From assembly GCA_002256025.1 (NCBI GenBank), contig NKIB01014012.1:1-48447 (forward strand): a stretch of DNA of 48,447 bases, in the 5' to 3' direction. This document shows positions 1 to 45,676 of this stretch, piece after piece; the first letter of the stretch is position 1, and every line of letters starts with the position of its first letter. The stretch is from Asterionella formosa (lineage: Eukaryota). The notes beneath the pieces are model-generated. The model saw only the letters and a list, made by a program, of their open reading frames with translations, made no database searches and was not told the DNA's origin. The translations under genes and the position numbers were made by a program.

Positions 1-659
1 CTTCTACTCATGTCTATTGACTAACGAATGGTCAACGAAAAAGGGAGGGGGTCCAGAGCAAACATTCCAATCGGAGCGCGACTCTAAACAAATTGAGGTC
101 AGGTTCACAGAAATTCTAGACTACTTAGAACATATATTATGTACACCATGCGGTTCGGAAGTATGTAATAGTAGGAAGGGCTGTTAGCCGGATAATCATT
201 GGAGCTTGCGCTTCATGAAAGGCGGTGACCTAAAGTTTGGTTGCAACTATACATGAACAGAGGGAGCACCAGGGTACCAGTAACTGCATACAACGTGATA
301 TACCTAGTACCTGGTAATATCTGTTTCCTCGTGCCGAATCAGCATTTTGAGCCGCAACCATCATTCTTCATTTGGTTCGCTCATCATTACTTAGCATTTA
401 TTACCAGTATATAAGGAGTACTGTACCTGGTACCCTGGTACCTGGTACTTGCCAAGTGTGGACCACCATTACTTTATACCTACGCTGGTAACTTTTAAGT
501 GCCGGTATGCTTTATCATAACGGTGTTATGATTTGTATTTGCTAAAATGATTCACAGGATGACGGATTGAAATTCAGTGCAGTCGTTGTAGAATATTGCT
601 GGACTCTTTTGTTATTATCACTCCTCGCTCGTCTCATCATCGCCAACACCGTGACCGTC

Positions 660-2093
660 ATGTCATCAAGCAGCGAGCCACAAGCTGCATGTACTCCAAA
701 TGACGGCGTCTCGCTCGTTGCCAAATTTATTGGAGTGTACGAAGCATTTGTTCAAGAATGCAGTGAATCGGCACTCATGGAAGCCATTGTTGGCTCCTTG
801 CATCGCTCATTGACTGAACTGGGAGTACCTTCGCATCATCTACCAACATCTGTTGCAGTGTGCCGTGCATTGGCAGCTACTGGAGTTACACTCGTCGCCT
901 ACTACCTATTGTTTGGTGTCTTCCACGTGCGACGGCGCCAACGATTGGCACAAGAGCTACAATTGGCCCAACAACAGCTTCGCTATTTGCAAGAAAAGCT
1001 GCGTCGATCAGATGATGATTCCGTTCCTTCTAACAAGCAAGTTAGAATCTTTATGGATGGAGCCTTTGATCTGATGCATTATGGGCATATGAATGCCTTT
1101 AGACTTGGTCGTTCTCTTGGGACTCATTTGGTGGTTGGTGTCAATTCAGATGAGAGCATCATCCAGTGCAAGGGTCCTCCCCTGATGAGGGATCATGAAA
1201 GATTGACGATGGTAGAGTCTTGCAAGTTTGTTGATGAAGTCGTTCCAGGGTGTCCTTATATCATGAGTCGAGAGTACCTGGACTACGTCATTGAAAAGTA
1301 TAACATTGACTATGTCATTCATGGCGATGATCCTTGTATTGTAGATGGCAAGGACGTGTACGCAGCGGCGAAGGAGGCTGGAAAGTTTAGATCCATACCC
1401 AGAACCGAAGGCGTATCGACTACAGATATTGTTGGCCGCATGCTTTTGATGACGAAGGAACATCACTATCAAGGAGCAGATGATGCTTCCTATTTGCTCG
1501 GTCGACAGTCTAAGTTCCTGACCACGTCGCATATGCTGCGACTCTTTAGTGCCGGCATCAAGGCACCAAATAAGGGTATGAAAGTTGTTTACATGGATGG
1601 AGCATGGGACATGTTTCACTGTGGACACGCTGCCATATTGAAGGCTGCAAAGGACAGAGGTGACTATCTCATTGTTGGTATTCACGGTGATGCTGTTGTC
1701 AATAAGTTGCGCGGTCACAACTTGCCACTTATGAACCTTCATGAGCGAGTCTTGAGTGTACTAGGATGTCGATTTGTTGACGATGTCTTGATTGATGCGC
1801 CATACGAAGTATCCCCCGACATGGTGGCCTCGCTCAACATTACGGAAGTCGTGCACGGAACCCGAAGTGACGATATTGGCATTTCTCGTGACAATGAAGG
1901 CGAACGATATCGATACCCCAAAGCGGCAGGAATTCTCGCTGTTATTGATAGTCCAAGCGATTTCAATCTCGGACACATTGTGCAACGGATCTCAATTAAC
2001 CAGGAGACCTTCCAAGCCAAATTTGATCGAAAGATGAAAGCGGAACAAGACTACTACAATGGAAAGTATGGCAGAGCAAACAAGTCTCAGTGA
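660..2093 (+). CDS. PCYT2: Ethanolamine-phosphate cytidylyltransferase (CDP-ethanolamine Kennedy pathway), two CT domains, N-terminal membrane anchor
   Basis: Two HxGH motifs (FDLMHYGH, WDMFHCGH) and RTEGVSTT signature. The ORF-track start at 567 is TTG; the first in-frame ATG is 660. Hydrophobic segment LAATGVTLVAYYLLFGVFHV followed by RRRQR and a coiled coil. Confidence 0.93.
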   Translation: MSSSSEPQAACTPNDGVSLVAKFIGVYEAFVQECSESALMEAIVGSLHRSLTELGVPSHHLPTSVAVCRALAATGVTLVAYYLLFGVFHVRRRQRLAQELQLAQQQLRYLQEKLRRSDDDSVPSNKQVRIFMDGAFDLMHYGHMNAFRLGRSLGTHLVVGVNSDESIIQCKGPPLMRDHERLTMVESCKFVDEVVPGCPYIMSREYLDYVIEKYNIDYVIHGDDPCIVDGKDVYAAAKEAGKFRSIPRTEGVSTTDIVGRMLLMTKEHHYQGADDASYLLGRQSKFLTTSHMLRLFSAGIKAPNKGMKVVYMDGAWDMFHCGHAAILKAAKDRGDYLIVGIHGDAVVNKLRGHNLPLMNLHERVLSVLGCRFVDDVLIDAPYEVSPDMVASLNITEVVHGTRSDDIGISRDNEGERYRYPKAAGILAVIDSPSDFNLGHIVQRISINQETFQAKFDRKMKAEQDYYNGKYGRANKSQ

Positions 2094-2294
2094 AAGAATT
2101 CAACGTAGACTTTGTGACGCGACGCTTTCAAAATGGGATCTGATTACCAAGGCTTCCATTAAATTCTGAATCTAGAAAAGCTTCCTTACAACCTACATCA
2201 TAGTCACTCCCGTAACTAGAACCAATCCTGACAGTTCAATTACCAATCATACTTCCAGCAAAATGTACATAAATAGATCTTATCCACTTACTTA

Positions 2295-4475: not shown

Positions 4476-4893
4476 TACGTAATTACATTTATAGAAAAGG
4501 AACGCACGTCCACATCGAGAGGTGTGATTCTTAGCCGTAAATGAGAACGCATGATGTCACCATAATTAATATAGCCAATCAACATTCGAGAAAAATCGAA
4601 GTCAAGTGACGTAATTATGGTGAAAGCCAACTCACTTCCTATTACAACATTTTGATTGGATATTCAAATGGTTAGTTGAAGCGCACTTCAAACGACTACT
4701 GGCTTGTCCTAGCATTGTATATATTTAGAAGTCAAAATACCAACACAGGCGCACCTTCTGCTGCAACCTGATGCGAATTAGAGTACCAGGGTACCCTAGT
4801 TAATGAACCCATGATCCGAATTATCCACGTCAATATGAAAATTATAGCTAGGCCAATCAAATCTGCGTATTACTTGATTGTTAGTGTACGTCA
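4476..4893. promoter_or_regulatory. Cluster of ACGT-core bZIP sites and CCAAT boxes upstream of the Myb-like gene
   Basis: TGACGT at 4607-4612 (+), ACGTCA at 4827-4832 and 4888-4893, TACGTA 4476-4481, CACGTC 4505-4510; CCAAT 4575 and 4853, ATTGG 4655. Confidence 0.4.
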
Positions 4894-5669
4894 GAGAACC
4901 AAGGCTGACATGGAACAGACCAAGCAATCTGCCTGCTGCTCGTTTCAAACTCCTCACTGCTTGTTTGCCAAGTACACAACGTTAACACCGGTACATAAAC
5001 AAAACAGTGGCAGAACGAAGGCATAAACCGGTACCAGGTAGTATTGCGGAATACGATTACGGACCAGGTACCCGGGTACTTGGGCCAATACTAGCTACCG
5101 GTAACCGTGAACCAAAACCGTAAGCCCAAAAATCAAAAATATAATTTTCGTTTGGTTTTGGTTTCGGTTCAATCACCAGTCGGAAAAACCATGCTAACGG
5201 TTTTGGGTAAAACGTAAACACTGTCAGCCACCCATTGACTGTGATGTCGGAGAACAAAAAGATTATTAAAAAAACTACAAAAATAATTCAGACCGTGGTT
5301 ACAGATGAAATGGTATAATTCCAATTCAGGAATTAGTTAGTTTTTACTGCAATTGAGGACTCATCATGGTCAACAATTAAAAATGTGCCTGTGACTGGAG
5401 GTAACAACGTAATGACCATGATGATACAATGATTCCAAACAGATATACAATGAGATATATGTCAATCATTGTTTTCGGGTCTAATCCCTTGTAGAAGATG
5501 ATATACCATAGAATGGTGCAGATGTGTGAATAAGGCGCATTTGAATGTAACAACGAGGCAGAGCGATATTGTCTGTGGAGTCGAGCCCCATTGTGGTTCT
5601 ATCCGATTTTAGTCTACCTGCTATATCTACTATTGGTAGACAATCATGTTCAACACATGCATGTGCTTA

Positions 5670-5840: not shown

Positions 5841-5849
5841 CTAGTATGC

Positions 5850-6291: not shown

Positions 6292-6360
<69 letters not shown>

Positions 6361-6935: not shown

Positions 6936-7220
6936 AATATATATATCATATACCGGTTAGCTCCCCTTAAAGTTCTAGCTATTTTTATTTCATACTGCAT
7001 ACTGACGGTAAAATCATGTTAGTATAAACCATTTAACGTACGGTACCTGTTACCAGGTAACGCCACCATTATATTGTTAGCATGAAGAATATGGCCCCTC
7101 GTTCGTAATCACGATGTGCGTGCATTACATGTTATATCGCTCTACAGCCATAGAGCTAGCTGATTATGATCCAAAGGGACGACTTTTGATTCTCATCCAT
7201 ATTAGATATATGTATCTAAT

Positions 7221-8210: not shown

Positions 8211-8884
8211 TGGGTCGATATTAAGGACCTGCAAGAAACAGGTTTGTTGCACACAAAATCATCAACCCTACACACCTAAAACATTAGATGGAAACAATGT
8301 AGGTGCTGGACTCTTTTATTGTAAATACGTACAAGATACCTGTAGCAGAATAGCGGTACTGGTACCGGGTACCTATGGCTTGTACTCGGGCTCAGTGCAA
8401 AAGACGCTACGCACAGCTCATAGTACCTGGTACGGTAGTCTTAAATATTTATGGTTGAAGAATAAAAAACATAGACATGTCTGCCGGTATGCAAATGTGT
8501 ACGGTAGGATATAGTGTCAGCACGTCAATTTTTTGGCGCGCCAAAATATGACCGCAAACTTGCTCTACAAATACCGGTATGTGAGGATTCGACACAGCCA
8601 AAAATGAATAAGAAAACCGGTACGCATGATGTACATAGAATTGAAATGAAATGCCTCATTGCAGCTATACCTGTTAGGTACCCCTGGTACCTGGTAAATT
8701 ATAAGATATTTCTGGTATCAGCATACCGGTACCGGAATGCACAATCGGGAAGCTGCAATTTTCATCTCGACAAGAACAAATACTCCAGTGTGTGACAAAC
8801 AATTCAATAGACTACCGGTAGTTTGGCCCAATCTAGTATATTTTAGTCCAGTGAAGCGAACAAATACAGAAGGAGCGAAGCAAC

Positions 8885-12854: not shown

Positions 12855-13094
12855 GGTCGTCGACTCTCGTTTGTGTAGACTGCAGACATACTACTAGTCA
12901 CCCGAATCCCGAAAGAGTACCTGGAGCTGGGAGTATTTTACTGGGGCCAAGTACCCCAACAACCTGCTTGTGTCCAACTGGTACAAGCAAGTTGCGGTAA
13001 ACTAAAACTTTAGCTATTTTTATCCTAAATAGAATTAATTATTTAAGCCAATTGACCGCAACTTGCAGATATCTGGACCAGAACCTGGTACCCT

Positions 13095-13291
13095 NNNNNN
13101 NNNNNNNNNNNNNNNNNNNNNNNNNNNNNNNNNNNNNNNNNNNNNNNNNNNNNNNNNNNNNNNNNNNNNNNNNNNNNNNNNNNNNNNNNNNNNNNNNNNN
13201 NNNNNNNNNNNNNNNNNNNNNNNNNNNNNNNNNNNNNNNNNNNNNNNNNNNNNNNNNNNNNNNNNNNNNNNNNNNNNNNNNNNNNNNNNNN
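13095..13291. other. Assembly gap (N run)
   Basis: Run of N flanked by GGTACC/CCGGTA-rich DNA. Confidence 1.
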
Positions 13292-14292
13292 TGCTTGCCG
13301 GTAATTCCCGTGAGTACTGGTCCCTCTACTAGTTTTTTTTTAGAATCTCAGTTCCTCTGGCACCCGTTGCAAGCGTTTCTCCCTCTCAACACACACACCA
13401 GGTACGACTCCAGCTTGTACCAGGTACCCCGTTACATACGTAGGGTTCAATAGAGAATAATTCGACGACACAGTATCACATACAAACGATACAATAGCGC
13501 CAATGTAATATCAAGGCAGAAGCAAACTGAGGAGCAGCAGGTGCACTGATGACGTACTTACACACAAAATATAGCTACATAGGTGTACCGGTACCTGGTA
13601 CCATGTACTAACTTACTACAGTATACCTGGTACCGAGGAATCTGGATGCTCACCATGTACAATACTTACTGGCACAGTATCAGTAACAAGCAGATTGGGG
13701 CAATTGGATCGAATCATCCTCCAAAACCTACTGACAATGTAGTGCACGTAGCAGCTCATACCGGGAGTTATGTTTCCTTGCTTCTCAAAAGACTCATGTA
13801 AAACCAACCAAAAGCAAAATTGATTACCTGGTGCTACCTGGTACCAGGCCGAACAGCAATTCAGAATGATGCCAGGTAAAACTCTGCACTCCGCCAGCTG
13901 CTCGCTGCCTCACACCCAGCAGGACCAAAAGAGTGAAGGCTAAGTAAACTTAAGTGTGCGGAGGGCTTTCGTCGTATCATAGCGGCTAAAATATCTGTGC
14001 CAACCAACCACTTTTCGAAATGACCATATTCGGCTTGCTTGTTTCGTTATACCGGTACATAAATCTTTCACTGTGCTCCAGTAACAAGCATAACGGTACA
14101 TGGATGTTTGCGTATGATTATATAATGCACTACAGCAAAATACAGTATTTTGTTCATCGAAACGCTTCTATTTGTATATTATGTGTTGAATCTTAGACTC
14201 TTATTTGAAATAAGGAGTCCCAACAAAGAAAATGCAACATCCACATAATAGTATTTCCTCTTTCGTGAAATGCACAAGCTAATCTGATTTTC

Positions 14293-16583: not shown

Positions 16584-18399
16584 TTGTTAAAATTTTGCAA
16601 CTTCTTGATTTCGTTGCTGTACTTAACTGATATTATGACGTTACGAAGTGGTGAAGGTAAATGTTGGTTGACCAGGTCACAATAGACAGGCATAATTACT
16701 CCGAATACGAGAGATGATTGGTAGAATGCTGTTCCAGCATATATTCCTTATCTCGAACTACCGGTAGTGCACCGGCATCAATTTATACGCAAGCATTTTT
16801 GGTGAATCTCCTCGACATCACGTTCTCCTCCAGACACTATGATATTAGCGGATGCCGACCATTATACTTAAGAACATTAGTGGTTAATATCCTAACAATG
16901 GTTAGCTCTCTTTCGTGACAAGCTAAAATGTCACAATTTTAGAAGGGAGGGGGTCCTTGATTTGGCCGAAACATTAGGATTAAAGATATAATTAATGATT
17001 TCTATCGTAAAACAACTACTATGCATTTTTGAATGGATAAATGTCCCCAGAGGTTTGAAATGCCAGTTTGGTGACTGTCTGTGCGTACAGTACGAACCAG
17101 CGAGTTGTGGTCTTTTGTTGAAATTGACAAAGGGGCGCAAAAATAGACACTCGGATTCAACTCCAGCCGTAAAATTAAATCGATGCAAAAATATTTATAG
17201 GTTTCACACTGCCAAGTAATGTCTAATATCGCTATCCAAATCAAAAGTGTAACCAATGATTCTCTGAAATGACCAATTTCCCGAACCTTGCTAAGGGTTC
17301 CCTCAATCGAAATACTCATGAAGAGTATGTACTGGTAAATGCTCTTTTTTCCAGAAATCTTTATGTTTAGATGCGTATTTCATATATACATACATACGAG
17401 TGCAAACGGCTGTTGAAATTAGTACTTGGTACCCTGGAACTCCCTCTGGTTGAAAATAGTCGCGTCGATTCTTAAATTTTCTCAGGGGGCATTTTGGCTA
17501 TCAAGACTTTCTCCAGTTCGATTGTCCTGATATCCGCAATCACACAAGCTAAAGATCTATGTATAATATTTATCTAGGACATTTAAAATTGGCAACTACG
17601 TTTCAAAACAACGTTTTTCGGGGTTTTCGATTTTCGCTATGGCCAGCTGGAAGCACGCAGTGATGCATGACCCCATTTATTTTTCGAACCATCTATTCTC
17701 AACATACGTACCAGGAAGTTTACAAAAGTACCGTAGAACAACGGCAACTTGCCTTCGATAAGGGATTTGCACGACTGCGAAAGTGGGGATGACGGGAAGA
17801 AAGAAAACAAAGGTACCCGGAACACTCGTTTTGGTGTTTGGTTTCGTTATATCAAACAACTGAATGGTCGATGTAAATGTAACTACCGGAATACGTTCCG
17901 TAGAATGTATTTGTAGCGTATGTTATGGTCTTTCGGTAATAATTATGATATGGCTGGGTGCAATATCTGGGGTCATGAGGTACCAGGGTTGCCCCCCGTG
18001 GGCCTTGTATAAGCAAAAACCATCACGCTACTGTACATAATATTTTTGGCCTAAAAACCCTTGTTAAAATCACATTGACCATGTTGATATTATTCTGTTG
18101 GTTTACTCAATTTTACAACCTCCTGCAGTGCTTTATTTATCAACATAGCCGTCATGAGCAGCGATAATAGTAAACGCATCAAGCGGCACGGGAGCACACG
18201 ATTTGGTTCATATATGCCCTATTTAGTGTTGAATATGGCAAATCCATGCCTACATGACCAACCAATTCATGTGCAAAGCTCTTGAGCTTGACAGTGAACT
18301 CTCTGGGGTTGAAACTGTAAAGTAATGCCTCAAATACAGTCCTGTAGTAGTTACAATGAAGCAACTACAGCAATTTCACAACCATCGCTGTGCAATGGA

Positions 18400-22014: not shown

Positions 22015-22049
22015 GATACAGCTCCAACCGTCATGGTGGCAAAGACTGG

Positions 22050-22946: not shown

Positions 22947-23074
22947 TCTGGCGAGAAACTGCAGACAGGAACTTCGGTTTTTTAACAATGCCACAAAGAC
23001 CAGAAATTTCGGGGGAAATCACTTTATTTGGCATAGTAAAAAACCGAAGTTCTTTTCTGCAGTTTCTCACCAGA
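22947..23074. repeat. Imperfect inverted repeat (about 46-bp arms, about 35-nt loop)
   Basis: TCTGGCGAGAAACTGCAGACAGGAACTTCGGTTTTTTAACAATGCCA versus the reverse complement of 23029-23074, TCTGGTGAGAAACTGCAGAAAAGAACTTCGGTTTTTACTATGCCA. Confidence 0.9.
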
Positions 23075-25152: not shown

Positions 25153-25590
25153 CAACAGAACACCATATGTTCATGACTGTTGCTACTGCCGTGGGACAGT
25201 AAATCATCATAGTTTTAGGATCGTATGATCATAAAATTGAAAAAGGATAGTCGGAGTAGTAAGCGAGCAACAGAGCACCATATGTTCATGATTGCTGCTA
25301 TTTCAGCGGGATATTAAATCATCATAGTTTTCAGGACTGTATGATCATAAAATTGAAAAAAGATAGTCGGAGTAGTGAGCGAGCAACAGAGCACCATATG
25401 TTCATGACTGTTGCTACTGCAGCAGAACATTAAATCATCATAGTTTCAGGATTGTACGATCGTAAAATCGAAAGAGGGTAGTCAGAGTAGTAAGTGAGAA
25501 ACAGAACACCATATGTTCAAGACTGTCGCTACTACAGTGGGACAGTAAAGCATCATAGTTTCAGGATCGTATAATCGTCTAATTGAAAAC
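25153..25590. repeat. Minisatellite, about 115-bp unit, about 3.8 copies
   Basis: Units start at about 25153, 25268, 25384 and 25499 (CAACAGARCACCATATGTTCA..ATCATAGTTT..GATC.TAAAATTGAAAA..TAGTCRGAGTAGT). Confidence 0.95.
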
Positions 25591-26449
25591 AAGATATGCT
25601 ATTACTCAAACTCGGTTCTGATTTTGTATATGATAATGTAAAAAGCACTGTTGGTTTTATGGTATCATATCTAGACAGCGTAAAATAATATATGTAGTGG
25701 CTAATGATTCATTTCATTGTAGCTTGCAACACCTGATTTTAAGATCATTGAACTTTAGAAAACGACAACAGTTATCTAGTAGTACAAGCAATGTCTTCAA
25801 AAAACCATAAAGAGGTTCATGGAAACAAGCGACATGTGGCAAATACTGCCGGTATGGAACAAAGAAGCAAGTACCAAAATGAGTTAAACTACCAAAATGA
25901 GTTAAACAAAGAAAAAGCGAATAGACAATTATCCAAAGGAACCCAATCGGCAACAGGGGTTTAGTGGGGGTACTACCCCATCGTCGAGGGGGACACCATC
26001 AGCTACTAGTACAAAAGATCCCGTATTTGATACTGAAAGCGATGATGAGCGACGTTTCTTTTTCAGTTGTTGATACAAGAAAAATGGCTCCTGTCGATGA
26101 TACTACCATTAAAAACTCCCAGATGCAGATGGACGACATGGTACCATATCATAAATTTTCTAATCGCACGGACCAACAAGTACATGACAAACGGAGGGAA
26201 AAAAATTTGCACTTGCCAAAGGATATTATCAAATGGTCAATGAACTCAATCACTACAAAGGTCGTAATTCGGTTCAAAACTCGTCCATACAAGGTTGTGA
26301 AGAATCTTCAATTTCAGCAGCCTTATCAGAACTTCGTTCCCGCTTAGCTAAAATTGAACCGAACTATCAATTGTAACAAAGGTTGTGAGTTTTATTTGCT
26401 TTCAAGACCAAGAAGTTTTGCTGTGAACATGTAAGTTTTAGGTTATCGT

Positions 26450-28135
26450 TTGCGAATTGCAGGTACTGTAAAAAAGAATATCAATCTAATGTGCTTTTTT
26501 CTGGTCCCAAAAAACAAGGCAATTTAGATTATATTAAATCAACATTTGGTGGCATGTGCATTAAAAAGTTGAGCTAGAGAATGTCAGAATGTATTGAATA
26601 ATCAATTTAAAGGAATCTTAGGTAAGTTCTTGCAGGGCGGGAGATGCTCTGAAAGCATGATGTTTTGAGTCGGTGATTATATTCTTATCAAATATTTTTG
26701 AACTAAAAATGCTAACATAATTCATGACACACCAGCTGGTCTAACAGAATCTAACTTCCAGACTATGGATATTGATGACTTTATTTGGTGGGCGTTCACG
26801 ATTTATTTTTTTGCGCAGTCAAAGGACATTGACAGAAAAAGCCATGGATACCAAGTCTGGCGTGATGTTCTTGCTCCGGTGTATTTTATAAGCAGGACAA
26901 GCCGTGGAGAACCATGTTTAACAGGAGACAAATCTGGTGTGACCACGCCAAATTTCAACTAAGTCTTTGGGCACAGTGTGAATTGCAAACACGTTTTGTT
27001 GGTTCGCTGATCAATGCCAGTACAGAAGCATTTTGCTTCTTGGTGCTGAAAGGAAAACTCCGATTGCAACAAAAATATTTGGGTTTCAATCCAGATACGC
27101 AGGAAATTTCAGTGAAGCAACGATATTCGTCATTCTACTGATTTTGTGGACATTGGTGGGAAACCACTTATCAAAAAGTGTGAGCAAGGGAAGAAAGTTC
27201 AGTTTCAAATGGTCTCACTGATCAATGGACTGATGATTTACTCTGTTATTATAAGATAATCTGCCTACACTGGACTTTCACAAAAGAATCGATCTGAATA
27301 TAGAAGGAATCCTAGTGGAACTGCTGGTGATACAGAATAGCACAACAAAATTTGTGGTTTCAGGGGTGGTAATGGATTATATCGATGATATGTTTGTCGT
27401 GATTGCCTGGTTTCAATTGAAGATGCTGATAATCCAAATATTGGATGTGAACGTCGTAAAGTGTCAGATGTTAAAAAGTTTGTAAACAAATTTCTTGAAA
27501 AAATGCATATCCCGATGGAAAATTACCATGTATCCCAACTGAGTATTGTGTCTCCCAATCTAATGGCAAATACGCAACAGCAAATGAGTGGTGCCGTGTT
27601 ATATCGCATAATCTTATTATGCCTGCACTTCTAAATCATTTTTTGGTGGTGACTTAGAAGGATTATTTGGTGTAACTCCATTTGAGGTTCTTCATCAATT
27701 AATACTTGGAATATTTAAGGACTTTTTGGAATCATTGTACAATTATCGGACTATCCCTGAAGAATGGACATATTTTTTAAAGAAAGAAAATTTCTAGATA
27801 TTCCAGAGAACATCTCTGATCAGACACGTATCACTGAAACAACAGACACTGCTTTTCTTGATCAAGAGCAACCGAAGAAACGGGCAAAGACCAAAAAGAA
27901 CACACGCACCAGTTACCAAAAATATCGACTCTACACAGGCAAAAATCAAAACCCAACACTTGTACCAGCACCAGAAATGTATTTTCGAAACTACATTACT
28001 ATACTTCGAACAAAGTGCTAGATAGTATATCAATAGTCATTTGGAAAGGCAAAGCGATCGTGATATTCCAAAAGTGTCATAGAGATCTGGGGCGGATGAC
28101 AGCTTTGTCAAAAATGTCAGGGCAAGAAAGCGACA
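26450..28135 (+). pseudogene. Plavaka-like transposase pseudogene fragments
   Basis: VLAPVYFI (about 26867); GDTE*HNKICGFRGG..VCRDCLVSIEDADNP..GC (27326-27450); GLFGVTPFEVLHQLILGIFK (27660-27719); LERQSDRDIPKVS (28041-28079); KMSGQE. Multiple stops and frameshifts; family assignment from recalled motifs. Confidence 0.7.
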
Positions 28136-28390
28136 TGAAAAAGAACTTGTAATCTGAGTCATTCTATAACTATTGTAGCTATGTGGACAGTAGTCTATTA
28201 CATTTTCGTATCTCCTTCTATGCTGAATCTCAATAGTAGATGTAGGGTTGTATCATGTGAGAATTGAAAATGTCAACGAGAACAAGTAGAATGTGTGTGT
28301 TTACGGGTTGATTGGCGAGATTGTAATGCTGGTGGTTGAGGAAACGGATTTACAATGTGCGCTGTGTGCGGAACCATTACGAGTTTGAAT

Positions 28391-29590
28391 GATTTCTTCT
28401 CTGTAAACTCTTAATTGAATGATTATGAACAAAGGTTCACTGGACATGACGATTACTCAAAGATATAATGATCACTTGACCAAAAATTGAAGACGTCGTT
28501 ATTGCAAACAATCATTCCACTTGTCATCGTTAGTATTTCGTTGTTGTTACAAAAATCAGAGTGATGATGGATGGAAATTACAAGCCAAATTACATTACTT
28601 CAGCTGGTACATTATCCTACCAAGAAATTCGAATACAGGAATCTAATAGAAACAATAAATATAATAATAAAATATATGTAGTCAAAAGAGTTTCCATTTA
28701 AATTACAAGGGCATTTATCAAAATTATTAGATGATATAACGAAAAATTATGATCAGATGATCACAATACTATGATGCATCATGGAAATATGATAGTTTTT
28801 ATTTGCAGACGAACGCAAGAGCTGTTGTTTCCAGTTGGGCTTTCCCAACAAGCTCTTCAACAGCACAGAACTTTTCTTTGCATTGACCAGTAACCAATTG
28901 GAATCGGTAAGTTCATTGCAGAACAAATGATGTCTGCATCACCAAATCCCAATCCTGCCTCATGATAACAACCCAAAATATACTGTTTGTTGATTGAAAA
29001 GTTTTTGCTTCAATTTCCTTATTTGTTATCTCACCATTGTCTTTGGTGTTATCGCTTCTTGCAAATTCAAGTTTAGCTATCACTTTCTGACAGGTCAGAC
29101 AGATGCTTTGTATTTCGCTTGCCAACGCAAAGTTCTCAGAAGACACAACACTCAACGGTTGCGGGATACAAAGATTTCTTCTCTGTATACTCTTAATTGA
29201 ATGATTATGAACAAAGTTTCACTGCACATGACGATTACTCAAAGATATAATGATCACTTGACCAAAAATTGAAGACGTCGTTATTGCAAACAATCATTCC
29301 ACTTGTCATCGTTAGTATTTCGTTGTTGTTACAAAAATCAGAGTGATGACGGATGGAAATGACGAGCCAAATTACATAAATAGCTGATACATTATCCTAC
29401 CAAGAAATTCGAATACAGGAATCTAATAGAAACAATAAATATAATAATAAAATATATGTAGTCAAAAGAGTTTCCATTTAAATTACAAGGGCATTTATCA
29501 AAATTATTAGATGATATAACGAAATATTATGATGAGATGATCACAATCCTATGATGCATCATGGAAATATGATGGTTTTTATTTTCAGAC
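28391..29590. repeat. About 420-bp near-identical direct repeat (28391-28810 and 29173-29590): duplicated end of element B
   Basis: Both copies run from GATTTCTTCTCTGTA.ACTCTTAATTGAATG to ATGAT.GTTTTTATTT.CAGAC with few differences, and bracket the Kolobok transposase fragment. Confidence 0.95.
28811..29170 (-). pseudogene. Kolobok/Mutator-like transposase N-terminal fragment
   Basis: SSENFALASEIQSICLTCQK ... FSINKQYILGCYHEAGLGFGDADIICSAMNLPIP ... KFCAVEELVG (with frameshift); matches the LAS.L...CxxC...IN...V....G.G.....C..L.LP pattern of this transposase family. Confidence 0.7.
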
Positions 29591-30029
29591 GGTACCATAT
29601 CCAGTGCGGGTACCAGTTGATTATCATCATTGGACATCATACATGTGGTAACTGGTACCACTTGTTGATTGCACTTTCAAATATTTGCCAAGCCGCCGGG
29701 TCGTATATAAGAAAAATATTCGTTGGTACATATACATACAGTGTTGCACAATGTCTACATATATATTTAGCTATTTCAAAAAGGAATCTATGTATGTATG
29801 CGCAAATTTCCACTGATTTGAATATTTCAAACGGAATCATGTCATTCAAAAATAGCTCCTATAAATTCTTTGTTCCAGGGAATTTCGGTAACCCTAAGCA
29901 ATATTTTAATTTTTGCCTTAGGGTTGAAATGCAGGAACCTTAAGTAATAAGCATCTTAATAAAATAATCGAAACTAATTTAACATATTTTCATACATTGG
30001 GTAAATGTATATAGTCTATCGAAATATCG

Positions 30030-32570
30030 CTCATCTAATAATTTTAATAAATGCCCTCCTCATAATTTAAAAAGTAACTCTTTTGACTATGGAAATTTAA
30101 TTATTATATTTATTGTTTCTTTTAGGTTCCTTTATTTAAATTTCTTGGTAGGATAATGTACCAGTTAAAGCAATGTGGTTTGGCTCATCATCCTCGCCAG
30201 TCGTCCTCACTCTGATTCTTGCAACAACAACAAAGCAGCCATGTCGACAGGAACGAGTGTTTGTGATAAAATCTTCATTTGTCGTTCAAGTCATCATATG
30301 TCTTCGATGAATCATCATCTACATTGCACAGTATGTTTGTACTATGCAATCCGTTAAGAGCTTGAAAAGAAATCCAATGAAAACGAAATGGCTCATCACA
30401 CACGACGAATATTTTTCCGGCTGGTCTGTCACCAGATCATCAATCAGTGTTACAACCTCAATCATAGGAAAACAACATCCATTATAGAACAGCACAATCT
30501 ACTTCTCCGTAACATCGTCTCTCTAACAAGAACGTAATACATCTAGAATTGAAACGCAGCATAGCAGGCGATATGCACAAAGAAGCATGGCTGAGACTGT
30601 CTATTTATAGTAACAGAGTGATTCTGGTTTCGTAATTTTCATGTCTCATTAGATTGTCTTTGTCATCGTTCTAGTTCCTTACCTTTTAAGAGAGAAGCGT
30701 ATTCTTTGATGTATCTGGAATATTTCAATGGATGGCAGCAGTTGGTATTAGACACAAACCTCGACAAAAGCACTAGTACCTTGTAGATGTTCATGAAAAG
30801 CGAGACACTTTGCTTGGCCTATCGCCCACCAGCCAGTCTATACTGCAAAAATGCAAGAAGCAAGCACAAGTTGAATGCACATTTATGGATTCAAGTTTCA
30901 GTAGTGCAACAATGTAAAATATTAGAAACCGGAAGTCACATTTCATCTAATTACGGTTTTCATTAGCTATACTAGTAGTATTGATTGAGAGGAAGCAATG
31001 GTAGAATGGCTGCCAAACGGGCGGGGGAAAACACAGAGAATCCTACTAATTTTTCTCCCCAATGATCCCAGACCCTTTTTGAATGTCACTTGCCACAGAA
31101 AATGTAGAACAGCCGCCATGATCTGTTGATTGTTGCTTTATGGTGCCACTGACCGAGATCTCCAGAAATCTCAATGAGTTGCTTGTTTCTTGACTTGAAT
31201 GCAAAAGGGATCGAAACCAGTGGAAAAATCAAAAGGGAACTAAAAATGCTCTGCAAACATCAGGACAATTGTGAAAGAGAAATGAAGGTTCTTGGGAGGA
31301 GAAGTAAAGGGATAATTGCTTCTGGTCTTGCGGGAACAAGAATAGATTGACCCAAACAATGTTGAGAAGGGCGGAATCAATTGATGGTAAGTCAAGAGCA
31401 AATGACTTTCATGTTCCTTGTCATGCATCCACTTCCTGAAATGAAGGATCTCAAGCAACACATGATGCGAAAAGCTGAAGTGACAATACAGCACGATGAT
31501 ACACCATGCGGCTAAGAATGAGTGAATATGATGGAGAAGGGCGGAATCAACAAGCTGTGCATAGCATCACGGTTTGTCAAGAGCAAATGCCTAGATGATC
31601 AATTTCTGGGATATTACAAATACGGAATGACTTGTCCCCTTTCAGTGATTCAATAGCTCCATTTCGATTTGGTGGCTGGCCAACCATCAATGTGGACAAA
31701 ATAAATCGGTAAGTGCTATCAGCCATCATTGGATCAATCCACAACTGTTAGAAAAACTGACACATATGTGTTGCTTCTTTCAGGATAATTGTAGACAAAC
31801 AGTATTTGTACATTACAAAGAGCAGTGTTGGAGCCCATTTATTGATCGATACTTTCTCATTCAATCTTCAACTGACACATACTTTTACAGAAATATGCAT
31901 CAGTTGCTTCCTCAATTTGTGGTAAGTGAAGGCAGATAGAAGCAAAATGCATGTTGTTGTGTAAGCAAAACATGAACAGCTAACAATGAATTGCTTCTCT
32001 TTGTTAGTATGGCTGATTGGAACAACGAAACGGATTCAATAGTAATAGGAAAATGCGTGAATGCAAGATCAGATCCGTCAGGAGTAAATGGAACAAAGCA
32101 GGGGAACACCGGCAAGGCAACCAGTACAACAACCTTCAGAATTGGATTGGGGGGAAGGTGGAAGTGAAAGCTGAAGCACCAATCATTGCGATGAGAGCAT
32201 TGTAGAACATTCTGTAGCCTCTCAAGATATAGAAACATAAAACCATTCTTAAATATAGTTCTAAATTTCGATCATTTTCATCCTATATTAGACAATGATA
32301 TCGATGAGAATTACGATCATGCTAAGATAGATGTATGACAAAAGTATACACATCATATGACCATGTTTAACTAATTCTATGATGCAATGGTATTATAACT
32401 ATGATATTGTCATCATACTTCAAGCTCGGTAAAAGTTTACTGCATGATCATAATTATATGATACATTGATCATATTTTTGATCGAAAAACTATCATACAT
32501 GTAAAAATCCTGTGCCACTTAGCGCACAGTACCCTTGATCCTATATTCATGATAGTTTTTATTTACAGAC
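30030..32570 (+). mobile_element. Unclassified TIR element B, copy 2 (inverted, left end truncated), carrying a degraded intron-containing gene
   Basis: Ends in ATGATAGTTTTTATTTACAGAC (32549-32570). Internal GTAAGT donors (about 31709, about 31922) and a CxxC segment (TEICISCF) are conserved with copy 1 (TDLCITCF, about 24230-24190 on -). Confidence 0.7.
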
Positions 32571-32619
32571 AGCAATACCACCCAATCAAAAGCGTCCTTC
32601 CCCATGTGCAGTATATCAT

Positions 32620-33661
32620 AGTTGTTATCGCCATTCACCAAAATGATTTCCTCCATGCAACCCTGTAATGTTAAGAAAGAAAAATATAATAGTTTGGGGT
32701 CAAAAAATTGAATGCTGCCTGCACTGCCTCTATCAAACTGTCAAAATCATCGTTAGATTCCTCAACGGAGTCCCATTGACCTGGCTAAAATGCCCTGAAA
32801 AACGATAGATCATTGATATTTAAATCAGAACTGTTTGCTGATTGCTTTGTCAATTGAATATCGCAGCCTTCAGCTCTTGCTGTTCGTAAGCTAGAAAGGA
32901 GCGTAATCAGAACCAAAATGGGTGGAGGCATTGCTTGCCACGATGTAGATATATTCGTTTGTTGCTTGTATATGGGCTACTTCTTTTGATCACAGGTAAA
33001 CCATTTTTCATGATCATGTCAGCATATGTCTGCTTGGTACCTCCTGAAAAGGATTTTTCTCATTGTCCCTGCTTGTCGATAAGTGGAAGTCCTTTGGGCT
33101 GCCAGCCACTTGGTGGCTGAACAAATGGCCAAATGCCAGTTTTAACATCAAACACATACACTTTGTTGTCGTCGAAATGTAGACGAGTTACAGAAGAAAA
33201 GAACATTACCTTTTCGATATGATCTTTATGTCTTCTTTGCCTTGTGGGAGCCTCCTCTCCATGAGCCAGATATATCTTCAACTTTTCCTCTGCAACACAA
33301 AACCAATTTTGATCTATTTGGACCTGCTGGTCGTAGAAGCCATCGTGATATCCTCCAAGCAGTCCGGATTTGAAGTCAATGTTAGGCGAAGGATGTTCTT
33401 GATCAGGATGGTTTCATTGTAAATGGCTAACTCAATACATAAAACGACTAATCTTACTCTCCTCGTCCGAAAAAGTCAGCTTCAGCGCAATTGAGTGCGG
33501 TCGAAATACATCACCTCTATTATCAAAAACTGTTAACTTGGGAAAGGCAAGCGCAGCTGCTTTTTTACGATATGTACTACACTTGCGATACGGGATATCT
33601 GCAATCGCTGTAATTATTTCCTCACCATTATATTTGAGACGACGGCCAGCCAAGAAGAATC
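32620..33661 (-). pseudogene. IS630/Tc1/mariner DD39D-type (plant/oomycete mariner-like) transposase pseudogene
   Basis: IPYRKCSTYR..AAAL, VQIDQNWF, IYL..GEEAP.R..HK.HIEKVMF..V.R....FDVKTGIWPF, SNASTH, DIQLTKQSANSSDLNINDLSFF. Frameshifts and stops; truncated by the gap. Confidence 0.85.
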
Positions 33662-34760: not shown

Positions 34761-35372
34761 GGACAACCCAATCGAAATCGAAATCGAAAGCACTGTTATT
34801 CTAGCCATCGTCATGCACCACCATCATGAAATGATTGAAGAAGGAGGGGAGGGCTTGCGCTTTCGAGAATACTAAAAAACCACCAGCCAGCATGGCTGTG
34901 CAGGACCCATCCAGGACTTGACTGCGATGACTGTGCGTGCCGCCGTCCCTCGAAGCAAATAGCTAATTAGCAAATACAAGTACAAGTACAAGTACATACC
35001 GGTACATGTCCTCAATTATATGGGGTACCTGGTACCCTGGTAGTAGAATTTGTACATAGACTATTTTATTAAGGGCACCTGGTCGTACCAGGAATATCTA
35101 AAATGATGGTAATGTACTCGTCCGTGTACCGGTACCGGTATGTGATATCATTTCATATTTTTTCATTGTTATAGCTACCAGTATTTCAGTATTGGGTGTA
35201 CATACCGGTACCTGGTACCTGGTAGTCTACTCCGATATATACCTGGTAGAGTCTGGTAGACCTCTACATAGACATAGACTTATAAATAGTTTGCCGGTAT
35301 GTGAGATTTGCCCGTCGATAGCAGTCACACAACCATTTAATACATCGCATCTGTTGGAATTGCTTTTCAAAC

Positions 35373-36285
35373 ATGAACATTGTAAGGAATCATTGGCTCA
35401 GTTGGACCATTTTGGTCGCTTCTATTTGTCTTGGAATCATATCCACTTCGTCTCTCCATCAGCGCGTGAACGGGCAGGCCCTGAACGATGATCATTCCAA
35501 TAATCCAAACGAAAATGAGCAATTACTTCCGCATCAGTTTCCAATGGAGAAACCTCGAATGATAACGGTGGAGGAGCTTGCCAAGTAAGTACGCTTGATC
35601 GCAACATCACAGGGATAAATTCATGAAGCTAACGATGACCTTGCGCGTTCTATTCTCATGGCTCAGAAACGACGGTCAGGGCAAAGACGGCGTCATTTGG
35701 CTCTCTATCCTTGGAGAAGTTTATGATGTTACCAAGGGAGCTGGCTACTATGCAAAAGGAGCGGGCTATGAAGTGTTTGCCGCTCGAGATGGATCCGTTC
35801 CATTCATTACTGGAAATTTCACAGCGGAAGAAGCGGAGAAACCTATTCTGGAAGTCCTAACGGACGCTCAATTGTTTCAGCTAGAGGATTGGAGAAAATT
35901 TTACATGAATGAGGAGCGATATCCTTTGATGGGTTTATTGCTTGGTTATTATTACGATGAGAACGGTGCACCGACTGAGGAAAGGAATCGGGTAACAGAA
36001 ATAGTGAACAACTTTGTGCCCCTTGGCGTACGACGACGAAAGGAACGAGAGGAGAAAAGAAGGAGGGAAGAGGAAGCTGCTGCCGCCGCCGCTGCCGATG
36101 AAGGTGCAGCATTGAATGCGGCCCTCGACGAAGGAGTCGATCCTGCTAAAAGTGCCGATAAAGGCGAGCCTAAGCGTGTCTACGCCAAGAAAGAATATGT
36201 ATCCGATGAAGCTGCTGTCAAGAAAGGTAGCTTGAAGCGTGGTGGCGTTAAGGGAGTAGTCACTCCTAATCAAGGCGAGTTGTAG
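35373..36285 (+). CDS. Cytochrome b5-like heme/steroid-binding (MAPR: PGRMC/neuferricin-like) protein, 2 exons
   Basis: Exons 35373-35584 and 35667-36285 (intron 82 nt, GTAAGT..CTAAC..CAG). Signal/TM N-terminus; ITVEELAK|NDG..IWLSILGEVYDVTKG..YY..G.GY..FAARDGS. Confidence 0.88.
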
Positions 36286-36372: not shown

Positions 36373-37572
36373 TCATGCAATGGCAGTAGCCAACCTTTCG
36401 AGTACAAATTCAAGCGCCCGTTCGGTCGCTGATGTACCCTCGTTCGCTCCATTTATTCCACCAGTTATCGTTATTTTGTCAGGATTGCTCTCGGTCGCTA
36501 GCGCCATACTTTCTGAGCTGACACTAGGAACAAAGGCATGTTTGCAAGCCAGTGCCATTTCCAAGTCATTATCATCGTCGCATAGACAGAGTGCGGACGA
36601 AGCCATAAACGAGACATCGCCGTTGTTGCATAGTTCCTTGGCTAAATGAATGCAGCAGTTCTTTTTACCACTATCCCTTGGGTAAAAGTCCAAACAACCC
36701 AAGTTCATGCTGGTGGCAAGCTCAGGTGGGACATGATGGTCAGCAGTAAGCAAGGCATCGAAGGCCGCCATGTTAGTTTGCTGCTTGCGATTGACACGGA
36801 AGCACGTGGAATACCCCTCAGTATCAATGACTAGACCCTTGTCCATCAAGGTTCGAGCATACTCCCACAAAAGGCCCTTACGGTCTTTCACGGGAATGGG
36901 GTCTTGCGACGTCGCGAGCTCCGTGCCAACAAAGCCATCTGTACCACATGTTTGTTCCATGCATGTGCGCCACGCAACATCTTCTATCAACCCAAAAGGT
37001 TGCAAATCCCTCTCGCTGCATCCATCGTAGGTTTGTGGAACAACTACTAGACCGTGGTATCCTTCCATATTGGTTGTTGGATAAAAGATGCGCCCAGCCT
37101 CCGAGCAGTAGGCATCGGCTCGAGGCAAGAATGGCAATCGTTTCCACAGGGTGGAAGTTCTCATTCCACTGATCAAAACAAGCTTTCTTCGGTATTTCTG
37201 GCGTATTTGTTGGCATTGCACCAGCGTTTTGGCGGAAATGACTCCTTGCATTCCAGTGGAACTGGGCGGCAATTGGAGTATGCTCTCGGAATAGTCAACA
37301 TCGTCGGCGGGATAGTGAACCAAAGTCCCATCGACATCGCTAAAGATAATTTGAATCTCTTGACTGGTGGCTAGTGAGTGTGTATCGGCAGTTGCATCTT
37401 CGGTGTGGCGTGAGAGCGACGATGTTGGTTCGCCGTTGAGCAATCTGATTGGGTCAGTCGTGATCGCTGGGACAGGATTACCGGTAGGCAACGACGAGTT
37501 TCCAAGCTGGAATAGCGCTGACATCAATCCAACGACGAAGAAGATTGCGCGGGAGGGAAGCCACGATCGCAT
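36373..37572 (-). CDS. HAD-superfamily hydrolase (IIB/Cof-like) with predicted signal peptide
   Basis: Motif I IFSDVDGTL, motif II LISG, motif III SGK, motif IV CDDDNDLEM. First ATG at 37572 followed by hydrophobic AIFFVVGLMSALF. Confidence 0.8.
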   Translation of the reverse strand: MRSWLPSRAIFFVVGLMSALFQLGNSSLPTGNPVPAITTDPIRLLNGEPTSSLSRHTEDATADTHSLATSQEIQIIFSDVDGTLVHYPADDVDYSESILQLPPSSTGMQGVISAKTLVQCQQIRQKYRRKLVLISGMRTSTLWKRLPFLPRADAYCSEAGRIFYPTTNMEGYHGLVVVPQTYDGCSERDLQPFGLIEDVAWRTCMEQTCGTDGFVGTELATSQDPIPVKDRKGLLWEYARTLMDKGLVIDTEGYSTCFRVNRKQQTNMAAFDALLTADHHVPPELATSMNLGCLDFYPRDSGKKNCCIHLAKELCNNGDVSFMASSALCLCDDDNDLEMALACKHAFVPSVSSESMALATESNPDKITITGGINGANEGTSATERALEFVLERLATAIA

Positions 37573-37699
37573 CTCAATCAGGATGGATGTGTCATTGATG
37601 TCGGCAGCTCTCCCGAGAAACAAAAAAACGATTTATTGTGTTTGGTACAAAATGGAAGCGAAAAAGTCGAAGGCGGAACAGAACTCATCATATCGTCAG

Positions 37700-38115
37700 C
37701 CATCATGATACCAGGTACGGGTACTGGTACCATACCAGGTTCCGGTAATCCATGGTACCAGTACCCTGGTACCTGCTGGTATCTACATTCGCTCACCTGC
37801 ACACATACTGGTAAATACAGTACCTGGTACCAGGTACATAGCATGTATTCCGGTACGCACATTCTCCCGGTAAGGACAGGACAGACGGCAGCGTTGGACT
37901 CCAACCATCGAAATCGAATCATGATGAATGATTTAAAAAATGAAAGAAAAGCCAAGAACAAAGTAAGTATACCGGTATCTAGAGTTGCCAGCATGTAGTG
38001 GTAAACAAATAAATCAATGTACCAGTACCAGGTACCAGGTAGTCTCAGGTGCACTGGTACCTTCACACCGTTTCCTAGTCTACCGGTAATACTTTTAGGC
38101 TACCGGTACTGGCAG
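37700..38115. repeat. Dense cluster of interlocking GGTACC / ACC(W)GGT palindromes in the HAD/NOG1 divergent spacer
   Basis: For example TACCAGGTACGGGTACTGGTACCATACCAGG, GTACCTGGTACCAGGTAC, GTACCAGTACCAGGTACCAGGTA. Confidence 0.85.
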
Positions 38116-38390
38116 TCCACATACGCCACTAATATATGCATTATATATATAATATAACATGAATTACGGTAATATACTGGAAATGCAGTACCAACACCAT
38201 TCATGCACTTTTTCAAGCAAGCAGGAGCCTTGTTTTACGATTGTTCGTTGTGGTGGAATCATATTTTCCTTCGACTATTTGGCGGAAGCATTCGATTGGC
38301 TTGCCCTCCGTGACAGACTCATAATCATTGCTGCTATTGCTGCCACTGTCTAACCTGACTCTGAAGTAAGGAAGGAACCAGCCAGCCACC

Positions 38391-41189: not shown

Positions 41190-41440
41190 CCAGATACCCG
41201 GTATGTACCACCGGGTAGTACCGGTACCTGGTACCGGTACCTGGAACCGGCAGTCCTGGTCCCAGTATTTCTTACCGTTATGGGTACAGGAGTTGGTACC
41301 TGGTACCAGGTTCCGGTCTACTGTAGTCCATAATTTATACTGCCTGTAGGACAGTAGACGGTACCGGTACCGGTATATGAAAAAGACAAAAGAATTGCTG
41401 ACGCTGGTTAATACATGATGTGGTAAATACCAGTACCGAC
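41190..41440. repeat. Dense GGTACC / ACC(W)GGT palindrome cluster upstream of GFM2
   Basis: GTACCGGTACCTGGTACCGGTACCTGG (41218-41244), GGTACCTGGTACCAGG, CGGTACCGGTACCGGTA. Confidence 0.85.
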
Positions 41441-41832
41441 ATGTGTATCTACGACATGATATGATAATAAACCTCTCGGCCCAAAGCCAGCGCAATCTCA
41501 CAGCCATCAACTAAGATACGGGTAGACTACAGGTAGTACAGAATGCCATGGCTGCTGCAGCATGGAACGATTTCGTGTAAGAAAATGACGAAAAAGGACG
41601 ACGACGACAATAGCGACAACGACGAATCTTCCTCGATCGGCCACCACTAACAACAAACGATTTCATCTTCTAGATTTGTACTCCTGTTGTTCTTGCAACA
41701 TACACACTTTGTCCTCAGGCACCCCACAATCTGCCCTCGTATTTATCGAATATAGAGCTGCACCCCATCGTCGCAGCGAAGGGAAAGATCCAATCCTACT
41801 ACAATAATACACACTGCGCCACTCCACAAATA

Positions 41833-44532: not shown

Positions 44533-44589
44533 ATTAGCAACCTGTCATGGTTTTGAAAGCAAATGTAATTTCGGTAATCTCATTCTTAG

Positions 44590-45168
44590 CTATTTTAATT
44601 GTGTAGCATCTTTTGAGTAATCTTGCAACAACAGCCTCACCTTCCGTTCCGCCAGTGCGGCTGCTCGCTGCGTAACTGCCGATTTCTCCAGTCCTGCCAT
44701 CCACTCCAGATTATCGGCGGCATTAAAGTGACAGGAGACAAATATGGGATATCCCAACGTTGTCGATAGCCGCGATGCCATCTGCGCTCCCAAAATTTGA
44801 TCCTCGCTGTCTCCCCCAACCAATTGCGACGTTGATGCACCGCCTTCATCCGAGAAGGCCCCCTTGTACTTGGTCCTCGGCATGGCAACGACCAATTGTC
44901 CCATGCTGGGCACGCCGGACATTTGAGGAGCTTGTGTGCAGTTCTGCTGAATCTTGCCCCATCCCATCCAAATCATTGTGGAATTTTTGAACAAGGTTAT
45001 GGTCCCGACAATCCCTACTGTATCGTCGTGCATTGTGCGAATGATGTGGGGTTCATCGAAGCCTTGTAGGACGCTGCTTGTCAGGCCCACAGCGAAGCAT
45101 TCGACGCGGATGTTTGCGGTTGGGAGTATTGTTACGCTAACTGATGATGATGATGTCTCTTCCGTCAT
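44590..45168 (-). CDS. PSMG4: Proteasome assembly chaperone 4 (PAC4)-like
   Basis: S.MIWMG..MGQLVVAMP....STSQLVG....MASRLS..LGYPIFVSC pattern. Confidence 0.75.
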   Translation of the reverse strand: MTEETSSSSVSVTILPTANIRVECFAVGLTSSVLQGFDEPHIIRTMHDDTVGIVGTITLFKNSTMIWMGWGKIQQNCTQAPQMSGVPSMGQLVVAMPRTKYKGAFSDEGGASTSQLVGGDSEDQILGAQMASRLSTTLGYPIFVSCHFNAADNLEWMAGLEKSAVTQRAAALAERKVRLLLQDYSKDATQLK

Positions 45169-45676
45169 GTTATAGAGGCGATGATGGTTGGTGCAGATGG
45201 ATACAGATGAAATGAGGATGTTACCGGTTTGCTAATGGATGTCAAATGGGTTGATTCGTCGTTTAGCTGCTGAAACTAAATGAATATCATATCCCGGTAT
45301 ATACATATAAATAAAAGAAAAAAATCAATGATAATAATGTGTATATACTCATGAATTATGTGTATACCGGTATGAATGTTGAGGCTAAATACAGTTCCGA
45401 AATGTGATGCCGCAATCCGTCATCCGGGAGATTTATTTTCATGCCACGTATTATCATTTATAGGGATCAAGAAGTACAGGTAAGTTTGTGGATATACCGA
45501 TACATTAATTCATGGGCATACCGGTATATGAGTCTAGGCGCCAGCATACCGGGGTATGATCAAAAAGTTAGCTACGGTAAACACAATCGCGCATCTATTT
45601 TCTACTGACGGAACAGTACATAGACACAATCACTACAAAAAGGAGGATAAAAGCTACAACTCTCGCATTAATCACG

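Follow-up and report, generated by a model that had tools for sequence, protein, structure and literature searches.

Genes and motif clusters of the window

We analyzed a stretch of 48,447 nucleotides from the diatom Asterionella formosa (hereafter the window), which is the whole of contig G000:C14012 in a 68.4-Mb assembly, with regard to the short palindromic motifs that crowd upstream of its genes. A preliminary description of this DNA, made from the sequence alone, had reported clusters of interlocking GGTACC and ACC(W)GGT palindromes (W, A or T) on the 5' side of genes, and had offered a promoter mark, a target of DNA-modifying enzymes or a mutational process of open chromatin as explanations. 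Pfam supported the cytidylyltransferase, TPD, AAA/Rad17, Bmt2, DUF6824, cytochrome b5, NOG1, EF-G, PAC4, Med6 and bZIP-PAS genes and hence most of the gene names given there, whereas the frames called "Myb-like" and "GT" had no Pfam match. The HAD frame had no Pfam match, and its name rests on the names of its relatives. Named relatives of NOG1 were diatom proteins (73-80% identity), and the labelled runs containing window DNA were for the most part lake or freshwater samples. Core motifs are here TACCGGTA, TACCWGGTA and GGTACC. The features are as follows, with a strand given for two copies of a Stowaway-like miniature inverted-repeat transposable element (MITE).

181-266, minus strand: one end of a Stowaway-like MITE, which has its terminus CTCCCTCTG at 266 and reads leftwards; homologous to copies on C34 and C85, left extent not fixed; adjoins the first cluster
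270-450: cluster upstream of the cytidylyltransferase gene; 6 core motifs
419-447: four-unit chain TA-CTG-TA-CCTGG-TA-CCCTGG-TA-CCTGG-TA, inside the 270-450 cluster
4780-5105: cluster upstream of the minus-strand gene ending at 4336; 5 core motifs
7040-7060: small cluster upstream of the TPD-domain (CDIN1-like) gene (Pfam); 2 core motifs
8350-8820: cluster upstream of the CTF18-like AAA gene (Pfam); 10 core motifs
12984-13069: decayed, TA-flanked 86-b copy of a ~96-b MITE with CC(A/T)GCAAGTTGCGGT ends; this family is the likely donor of TACCWGGTA
13070-13860: cluster, with an N gap, in the spacer from which Bmt2 and the gene at 14293 diverge; 11 core motifs in 12915-13850, the stretch first described
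16759-16766: lone TACCGGTA upstream of the DUF6824 gene
17440-17950, plus strand: old copy of a ~800-b Stowaway-like MITE, terminus CTCCCTCTG, with GGTACCCTGG before it; 43 matches at 70-76% identity; bulk of 17420-17990
34980-35300: cluster upstream of the cytochrome b5-like gene; 13 core motifs; RNA contig cover from 35351
35127-35140: double unit TA-CCGG-TA-CCGG-TA; 6 letters, equal to one unit, are missing from run X18 at 35126
37479-37486: frame-keeping TACCGGTA within the coding sequence of the HAD-like gene, in its N-terminal part
37700-38115: two clusters in the divergent HAD/NOG1 spacer; 14 core motifs; unalignable in X18; NOG1-side cluster absent from the relative L061
41190-41380: cluster upstream of the EF-G (GFM2-like) gene; 13 core motifs in 41190-41540, the stretch first described; RNA contig cover from 41629
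41219-41239: mixed 6- and 7-nt units in the EF-G upstream cluster
45290-45560: weak cluster between the divergent PAC4 and MED6 genes; 2 perfect TACCGGTA and one-mismatch forms

The clusters of the preliminary description were borne out, with 2-14 core motifs per stretch, although two were weaker than described: 17420-17990 is mostly the repeated-MITE copy, with just 3 motifs at 840-1400 b from the DUF6824 start, and 45290-45560 holds 2 core motifs. Contigs (not raw reads) of independent runs crossed parts of two clusters (35081-36095 in X18 and 37581-37872 in X16), and the clusters are thus not an assembly artefact. Nor are they copies of one transposable element, as nine motif-masked clusters of the window had no match to each other; three of the clusters adjoin MITE ends (266, 12984-13069 and 17440). 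The RNA contig ends at 35351, 38305, 41629 and 45639 all came from one study and cannot fix transcript starts.

Abundance and 5' bias of the motifs

Comparison with an order-2 Markov model revealed a strong excess of all core motifs in the window: TACCGGTA occurred 23 times (0.46 expected), TACC(A/T)GGTA 23 times (0.4 expected) and GGTACC 51 times (9.6 expected). The whole genome contained 28,528 copies of TACCGGTA and 9,910 of GGTACCWGGTACC, compared with 1,718 and 5 of the respective reversed control words, as well as 106 five-fold arrays, with none for the reversed control. The unit total would be ~50,000, of which the 28,528 copies of TACCGGTA were counted and the remainder was extrapolated, and at least 2.8% of upstream bases belonged to recognizable units.

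The 5' placement was examined in 569 kb outside the window with 130 genes, called by our own hidden Markov model, whose agreement with Pfam and with three RNA introns was checked in the window alone. The sampled contigs (574 kb) were 11 long ones from the genome-wide GGTACCWGGTACC hit list, 4 from the methylase search and 23 short ones, 20 of them picked by number. Among spacers of 300-1200 b, divergent ones contained 5.7 motifs/kb (12 of 15 with a hit) and convergent ones 0.64/kb (3 of 12; Mann-Whitney p=0.0015), and 32 tandem spacers had 75 hits on the 5' side versus 21 on the 3' side (p=0.009). With the window included, density was highest (4-9/kb) at 100-800 b upstream of the ATG, and was 0.17/kb in coding DNA and 0.64/kb in introns; a density as high in convergent spacers or introns as in divergent spacers was thus not observed. 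The near absence of motifs from convergent spacers, coding DNA and the repeat region, as first described, was also confirmed in the window, where six convergent spacers (1,070 b) had no core motif and the repeat region had one in 18100-21000 and seven in 22900-33600 (0.3-0.65/kb).

A core site was present upstream in 70 of 100 sampled genes, and such a promoter position would favor one of the options raised earlier, namely that TACC(N)GGTA is the binding site of a general transcription factor, or of a nucleosome-displacing factor, specific to this lineage and that selection assembles and keeps many sites in each promoter. In the available parts of two reports on Phytophthora, the same word TACCGGTA is promoter motif M94 (PMC3597505) and a sister word, TACATGTA, is bound by PsMyb37 (PMC11134190), which also speaks for a binding site. 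However, the position here is broad (100-800 b), and the structure, origin and turnover of the units, described below, fit a selected site poorly.

Structure of the unit

The units had been described as (GTACCG)n and (GTACCWG)n. The palindromic strings are real, but they parse as TA-X-TA chains with TAs in common, and GGTACC is the junction between units (325 of 451 GGTACC border TA-X-TA units). In non-coding DNA, X was CCGG in 224 cases, CCWGG in 201, CCAG/CTGG in 157 and CCAGGG/CCCTGG in 38, while the counterparts CCTGGG/CCCAGG and CCSGG (CCCGG/CCGGG) were found 2 and 21 times, respectively; the ratio of CCWGG to CCSGG was ~10 to 1. The sister word TACATGTA was rare (6 in 86 kb of promoter). 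GG stood outside the TA in 61% of CCWGG units and 15% of CCGG units, compared with a promoter TA background of 12%. The centre of X had 0, 1 or 2 letters, strand-asymmetric forms included, and all 24 one-mismatch neighbours of TACCGGTA exceeded expectation, which is the pattern seen under neutral decay; both observations count against a protein-binding origin. In 38 long-array loci, single switches ran from T to A in 13 and from A to T in 4, and end units tended to read CCAG outwards.

The excess of CCWGG over CCSGG, and the presence, among diatom genes, of two C5 methyltransferases that are full-length and Dcm-like (232 and 200 bits), would be in line with another earlier option, in which the words are CCWGG/CCGG/GTAC targets of DNA methyltransferases kept as an epigenetic promoter mark. 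However, methylation creates no sites, the W bias follows from MITE ends (see below), and cores outside the TA context were not enriched in promoters (CCWGG 72 versus 90 expected, CCGG 90 versus 153, GTAC 259 versus 316). Since these cores were at or below expectation, a methylase target does not appear to be the origin of the motifs, and we consider this option extremely unlikely. The predicted Dcm-like (bacterial-type) enzymes are located at L141:505-1935 (G000:C15123) and L142:3550-5015 (G000:C868), and two weaker DNA_methylase matches were found on C12973 and C13066.

Empty sites, coding DNA and turnover

Copies of repeats were aligned within all sequence fetched, and partners with a bare two-letter site were scored. 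A bare-TA partner was found for 16 of 34 alignable TACCGGTA sites, compared with 8 of 697 other TA-N4-TA sites (Fisher p=5e-18). Four TACCGGTA sites were polarized by several empty partners (10/11, 8/9, 6/6 and 3/4), and the remaining cases mostly depend on one partner. One TA occurred in three states among copies (TA, TAGCTA and TACCGGTA), and so did another (TA, TACCGTA and TACCGGTACCAGGTA). A TA thus becomes TACCGGTA in one step, inside transposon copies, which is not how a site built up by selection would be expected to arise. Two clean two-unit gains in place of a TA, of 13 and 14 nt, were observed among CCWGG chains.

Other short inserts also duplicated TA, with an empty partner in 16 of 64 alignable TAGCTA sites (e.g., L189:1444 and C57:11330 among repeat copies) and in 63 of 358 TACTA/TAGTA sites, where the insert is C or G; both resemble additional classes of footprint. 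Such inserts, as well as long arrays that are purer than independent events predict, might suggest that a host repair or nicking activity adds fixed short words at TA, that slippage extends them and that transposons merely target the resulting GGTACC. On the other side, the inserted words are the ends of resident elements, the flank bias tracks the donor class and flank complementarity does not go beyond the marginals; besides, no enzyme that would insert CCGG as a fixed word is known to us. A host activity of this kind therefore seems hardly probable. A generic fold-back (template-switch) origin was rejected, as first-flank complementarity was 76 versus 67.3 (p=0.12) and 134 versus 135.7, and copying of this kind would require site-by-site complementarity of the flanks.

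Coding DNA contained 6 frame-keeping TACCGGTA versus 0.79 expected (p=2e-4) and one frame-breaking 7-nt TACCWGGTA versus 0.74. Promoter units turn over fast between relatives. In run X18, the flanks of the HAD/NOG1 spacer are 96-99% identical to the window, yet 37713-38167 could not be aligned, and one CCGGTA unit is missing at 35126. In the close relative L061, 231 motif-free bases lie between a ~40-b element and the NOG1 ATG, compared with 480 bases with a cluster in the window. The comparison with relatives that the preliminary description had proposed was extended to 80 NOG1 loci, 46 of which were left out for too little upstream DNA; TACCGGTA was absent upstream in all 34 usable ones. Because a bare TA gains a unit in one step and the orthologous NOG1 promoter has no cluster in L061 and is unalignable in X18, binding of a general factor is a most improbable origin of the motifs; it is possible that the units are used secondarily as protein-binding sites. 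The ~40-b non-coding element (37868-37911), which has a near-palindromic end and no Rfam match, is kept in L061, unlike the remainder of the spacer, and as a candidate cis-element or small RNA it appears more promising than the palindromes.

Candidate donor elements

Elements with ends matching the units, and with duplicated TA, are resident in this genome. The copies of a recently active pogo-like DDE_1 family are >99% identical and have CCGTA ends with TA outside (113 ends genome-wide; 93 DDE_1 matches in the genome). The flank preference of this family is weak, with GG outside the TA at ~8 of 41 ends (~20%), and its flanks contain 7.3 motifs/kb. A second, convergent frame of 145 aa without Pfam match lies inside its right end (L195:1346-1783, minus strand). 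Another DDE_1 family (L192:297-2628) has CAGTG ends and TA flanks, and would give TA-CAG-TA or TACATGTA scars.

Two MITE families have CCWG ends. For a ~890-b CCAGT-ended MITE (20 ends from 10 copies, and one long copy), all 20 fetched ends were TA-flanked and 17 began with CCAGT; the two letters outside the TA were GG in 15, AG in 2, AC in 2 and GC in 1. The ~96-b MITE has 621 exact ends genome-wide, 266 of them (43%) with GG outside, and all 14 complete pairs among the rows listed have one CCTG and one CCAG end. It is biased towards promoters: the number of its ends per 100 kb was 19.4 upstream of genes, 6.3 downstream, 3.9 far from genes and 0 within genes (n=30), and 17 of 30 sampled ends were at most 800 b upstream of a gene. 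Thus, the flanks of the units track the class of donor, with GG at 75% and 43% of the ends of the two CCWG donors versus 61% of CCWGG units, and at ~20% of pogo ends versus 15% of CCGG units.

The ends of the ~96-b MITE, TA[CCTG...CTGG]TA, would collapse via CTG microhomology to exactly TACCTGGTA, and this collapse over CTG would be the reason why A or T, and not C or G, is found in the centre of the unit. The same microhomology would also allow an origin without transposase, in which replication slippage between the terminal CTG repeats, or their repair by microhomology, removes a hairpin-forming ~96-b element and the 7-nt units are its remnants. The exact product agrees with such deletion, and palindromic Stowaway elements have been discussed as unstable in the part of PMC1925063 available. 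Although its product could not be told by sequence from a transposase scar, such deletion yields no TACCGGTA, CCAG or CCAGGG, nor the products of the symmetric CCAGT family, and transposition is still needed to place the element, so that we regard a transposase-free origin as quite unlikely.

A Stowaway-like MITE with CTCCCTC termini also sits at GG-TA, including the copies at 266 and 17440; the search that yielded 20 of its 29 ends had a GG-TA-type flank in the query, which biases that count. It was rejected as a donor of the main words, as its ends would give TA-CT..AG-TA, and TACTAGTA had just 17 copies in promoter and far DNA. This scarcity suggests that the Stowaway-like MITE uses the GG-TA-CC target and is not the source of the main words.

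Excision footprints as the probable origin of the motifs

Based on these results, we suggest, with a probability of roughly 0.78, that the motifs are excision footprints of TA-targeting DNA transposons of the Tc1/mariner/pogo superfamily and their MITEs. An element would insert at TA and duplicate it, and its excision would leave a few terminal bases, which end joining would fix as TA-X-TA. CCG-ended elements would leave TACCGGTA, probably because the CG of the two overhangs pairs, and CCAG/CCTG-ended elements would leave TACC(A/T)GGTA, with partial fill-in yielding CCAG and CCAGGG. As each scar ends with GG-TA and begins with TA-CC, the scar itself would be a preferred target of CCWG-ended elements, which favor GG-TA-CC; scars would thus seed further scars and form mixed chains of 6-, 7- and 8-nt units, and long chains may also lengthen through slippage. 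The 5' bias would arise because the elements land in accessible promoter DNA and are purged where they fall in coding DNA. This reading makes more specific the third option raised earlier, a mutational process: the process is indeed concentrated in promoter DNA and would consist of insertion and excision of TA-targeting transposons, with open chromatin as a presumed targeting cue. At a sequence level, the 6-nt class behaves as footprints should, and the 7-nt class does so in its donors and flanks but not clearly in its empty sites. If the point-mutation rate is ~5e-10, a rough estimate is that the number of scars would stay steady with a gain of only ~2e-4 per genome per generation.

Several observations weigh against a footprint origin. 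First, empty sites were few for the 7-nt and asymmetric classes, with a partner for just 1 of the 16 single TACCWGGTA sites that could be aligned and for 3 of 23 CCAG sites and, for CCWGG chains, a shorter partner in 5 of 21, which is thin; no site was found as empty TA, full element and footprint. Second, the donors are incomplete. No transposase could be linked to the CCAG/CCTG-ended MITEs, as a DDE_3 family search of the genome gave no match at E<=0.001 and no transposase-like frame could be made out by eye in the 4-kb CCAGT-ended copy, and no element with G...C ends was found as donor for TAGCTA. Third, location and flanks do not always agree: 19 of 40 pogo flanks had no motif, promoter location showed, in very small samples, no bias for Stowaway-like ends (1 of 8) or pogo ends (0 of 3), and the GG share of the ~96-b MITE (43%) is lower than that of CCWGG units (61%). 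In coding DNA, the second 6-nt unit TACCAGTA was not enriched (7 versus 4.9), and the in-frame unit of the HAD gene is present in three near-identical cluster members, while distant relatives do not align there. Finally, 17 of 38 long arrays were pure in W, compared with 12.5% expected from independent events (p=9e-7), which indicates that slippage acts too.

Comparison with known systems

The literature cited here was available in part, and the statements below are confined to those parts. Published footprints of Tc1/mariner and Stowaway elements have 2-4 terminal bases between TAs (PMC6943129, PMC1925063). Those of Sleeping Beauty, TACAGTA and TACTGTA, consist of the TA duplication and the 2-4 first or last bases of the element, as proposed here, and this pair is paralleled by the A/T centre of TACCWGGTA (PMC6943129). 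The Tc1 footprint in Caenorhabditis elegans is TACATGTA, as cited in PMC3520976. Footprints of Triticeae Stowaway elements have 1-4 terminal-repeat bases between TAs, with re-insertion beside an old footprint, and the CTCCCTC termini of these elements are present here too (PMC1925063); rice DNA-transposon excisions have the same footprint form (PMC4423477). However, the canonical Tc1/mariner footprints are single experimental or rare events, and the plant ones are varied and known per locus or in hundreds, whereas the ~50,000 copies here, known from sequence alone, are fixed, near-uniform, dominant among promoter words and chained via common TAs, and the GG-TA-CC preference of the donors would renew their targets.

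Among promoter motifs, the closest likeness is found in Phytophthora, where promoter palindromes M93, TACATGTA, and M94, TACCGGTA, were reported (Roy 2013, PMC3597505), with 4,150 occurrences of M93 in promoters. M94 is the same word as here, in another stramenopile, with promoter position and thousands of copies. In contrast, the Phytophthora motifs were read as transcription factor sites, conserved across species and bound by PsMyb37 (PMC11134190), whereas in the diatom the word lacks conservation among relatives and can be seen to arise in one step. Seidl 2012 (PMC3520976) raised the idea of a Tc1 footprint for TACATGTA and dropped it because the motif is abundant and conserved. The available main text of PMC11267843 contains no such word, and the literature searched, with subscription papers mostly outside coverage, gave no account for diatoms of such motifs or of footprints in such numbers; the preliminary description likewise knew of none in model diatoms.

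Of 24 NOG1 loci analyzed, 5 (about three other lineages) had more TA-CAG-TA, TA-CTC-TA or TA-GC-TA than any of 100 simulations, possibly a hint of the same process with other donors. The loci with this excess are L102/L103, L075 and L113/L114 (NOG1 identity 67-85%).

Other features of the window

An RNase PH (exosome subunit) gene, supported by Pfam and missing from the preliminary gene list, is located at 21105-22014 on the minus strand, alone between repeat blocks, with its 5' side adjoining an N gap. A bZIP-PAS (aureochrome-like) gene lies at 46630-48447 on the minus strand and has RNA-supported introns, and the cytochrome b5-like gene shows a 6-nt in-frame expansion of an alanine run at position 36075 in RNA run X11. 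The region 18100-20300 is decayed sequence, retroelement-like by eye, with one core motif and a frame (19631-20158) without Pfam match. The repeat region also contains a degenerate tandem array of ~120-b units (25140-25570) and a direct duplication of ~400 b (28390-28800 and 29170-29580), with an inverted copy of one part of it near 30086-30160. An Rfam scan of the window gave nothing at gathering score.

Implications for promoter evolution

Transposon footprints are known as scattered single events, whereas here they seem to be the strongest promoter sequence signal of a whole genome. Promoter motif discovery in such genomes can thus return transposon scars that resemble ideal homodimer sites. 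The scars also record, to the base, where transposons once moved and probably where chromatin is accessible. For Phytophthora, the argument that TACATGTA is too abundant for a footprint (PMC3520976, from the part available) is weakened and could be tested by empty-site comparison.

A wider and rather speculative view, which we consider doubtful on balance, is that the commonest stramenopile promoter words mirror, in each lineage, the ends of resident TA-targeting transposons and that host factors adopt the scars later. The TACATGTA and TACCGGTA words of Phytophthora would then have begun as Tc1- and pogo-type scars and later been bound by PsMyb37, and the diatom would represent an earlier, self-feeding stage; if so, the self-feeding scar landscape may itself help to keep promoters open. 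In this diatom, promoters turn over much faster than their genes, and it appears that transposon traffic, rather than a conserved regulator, writes and rewrites much of the promoter DNA.

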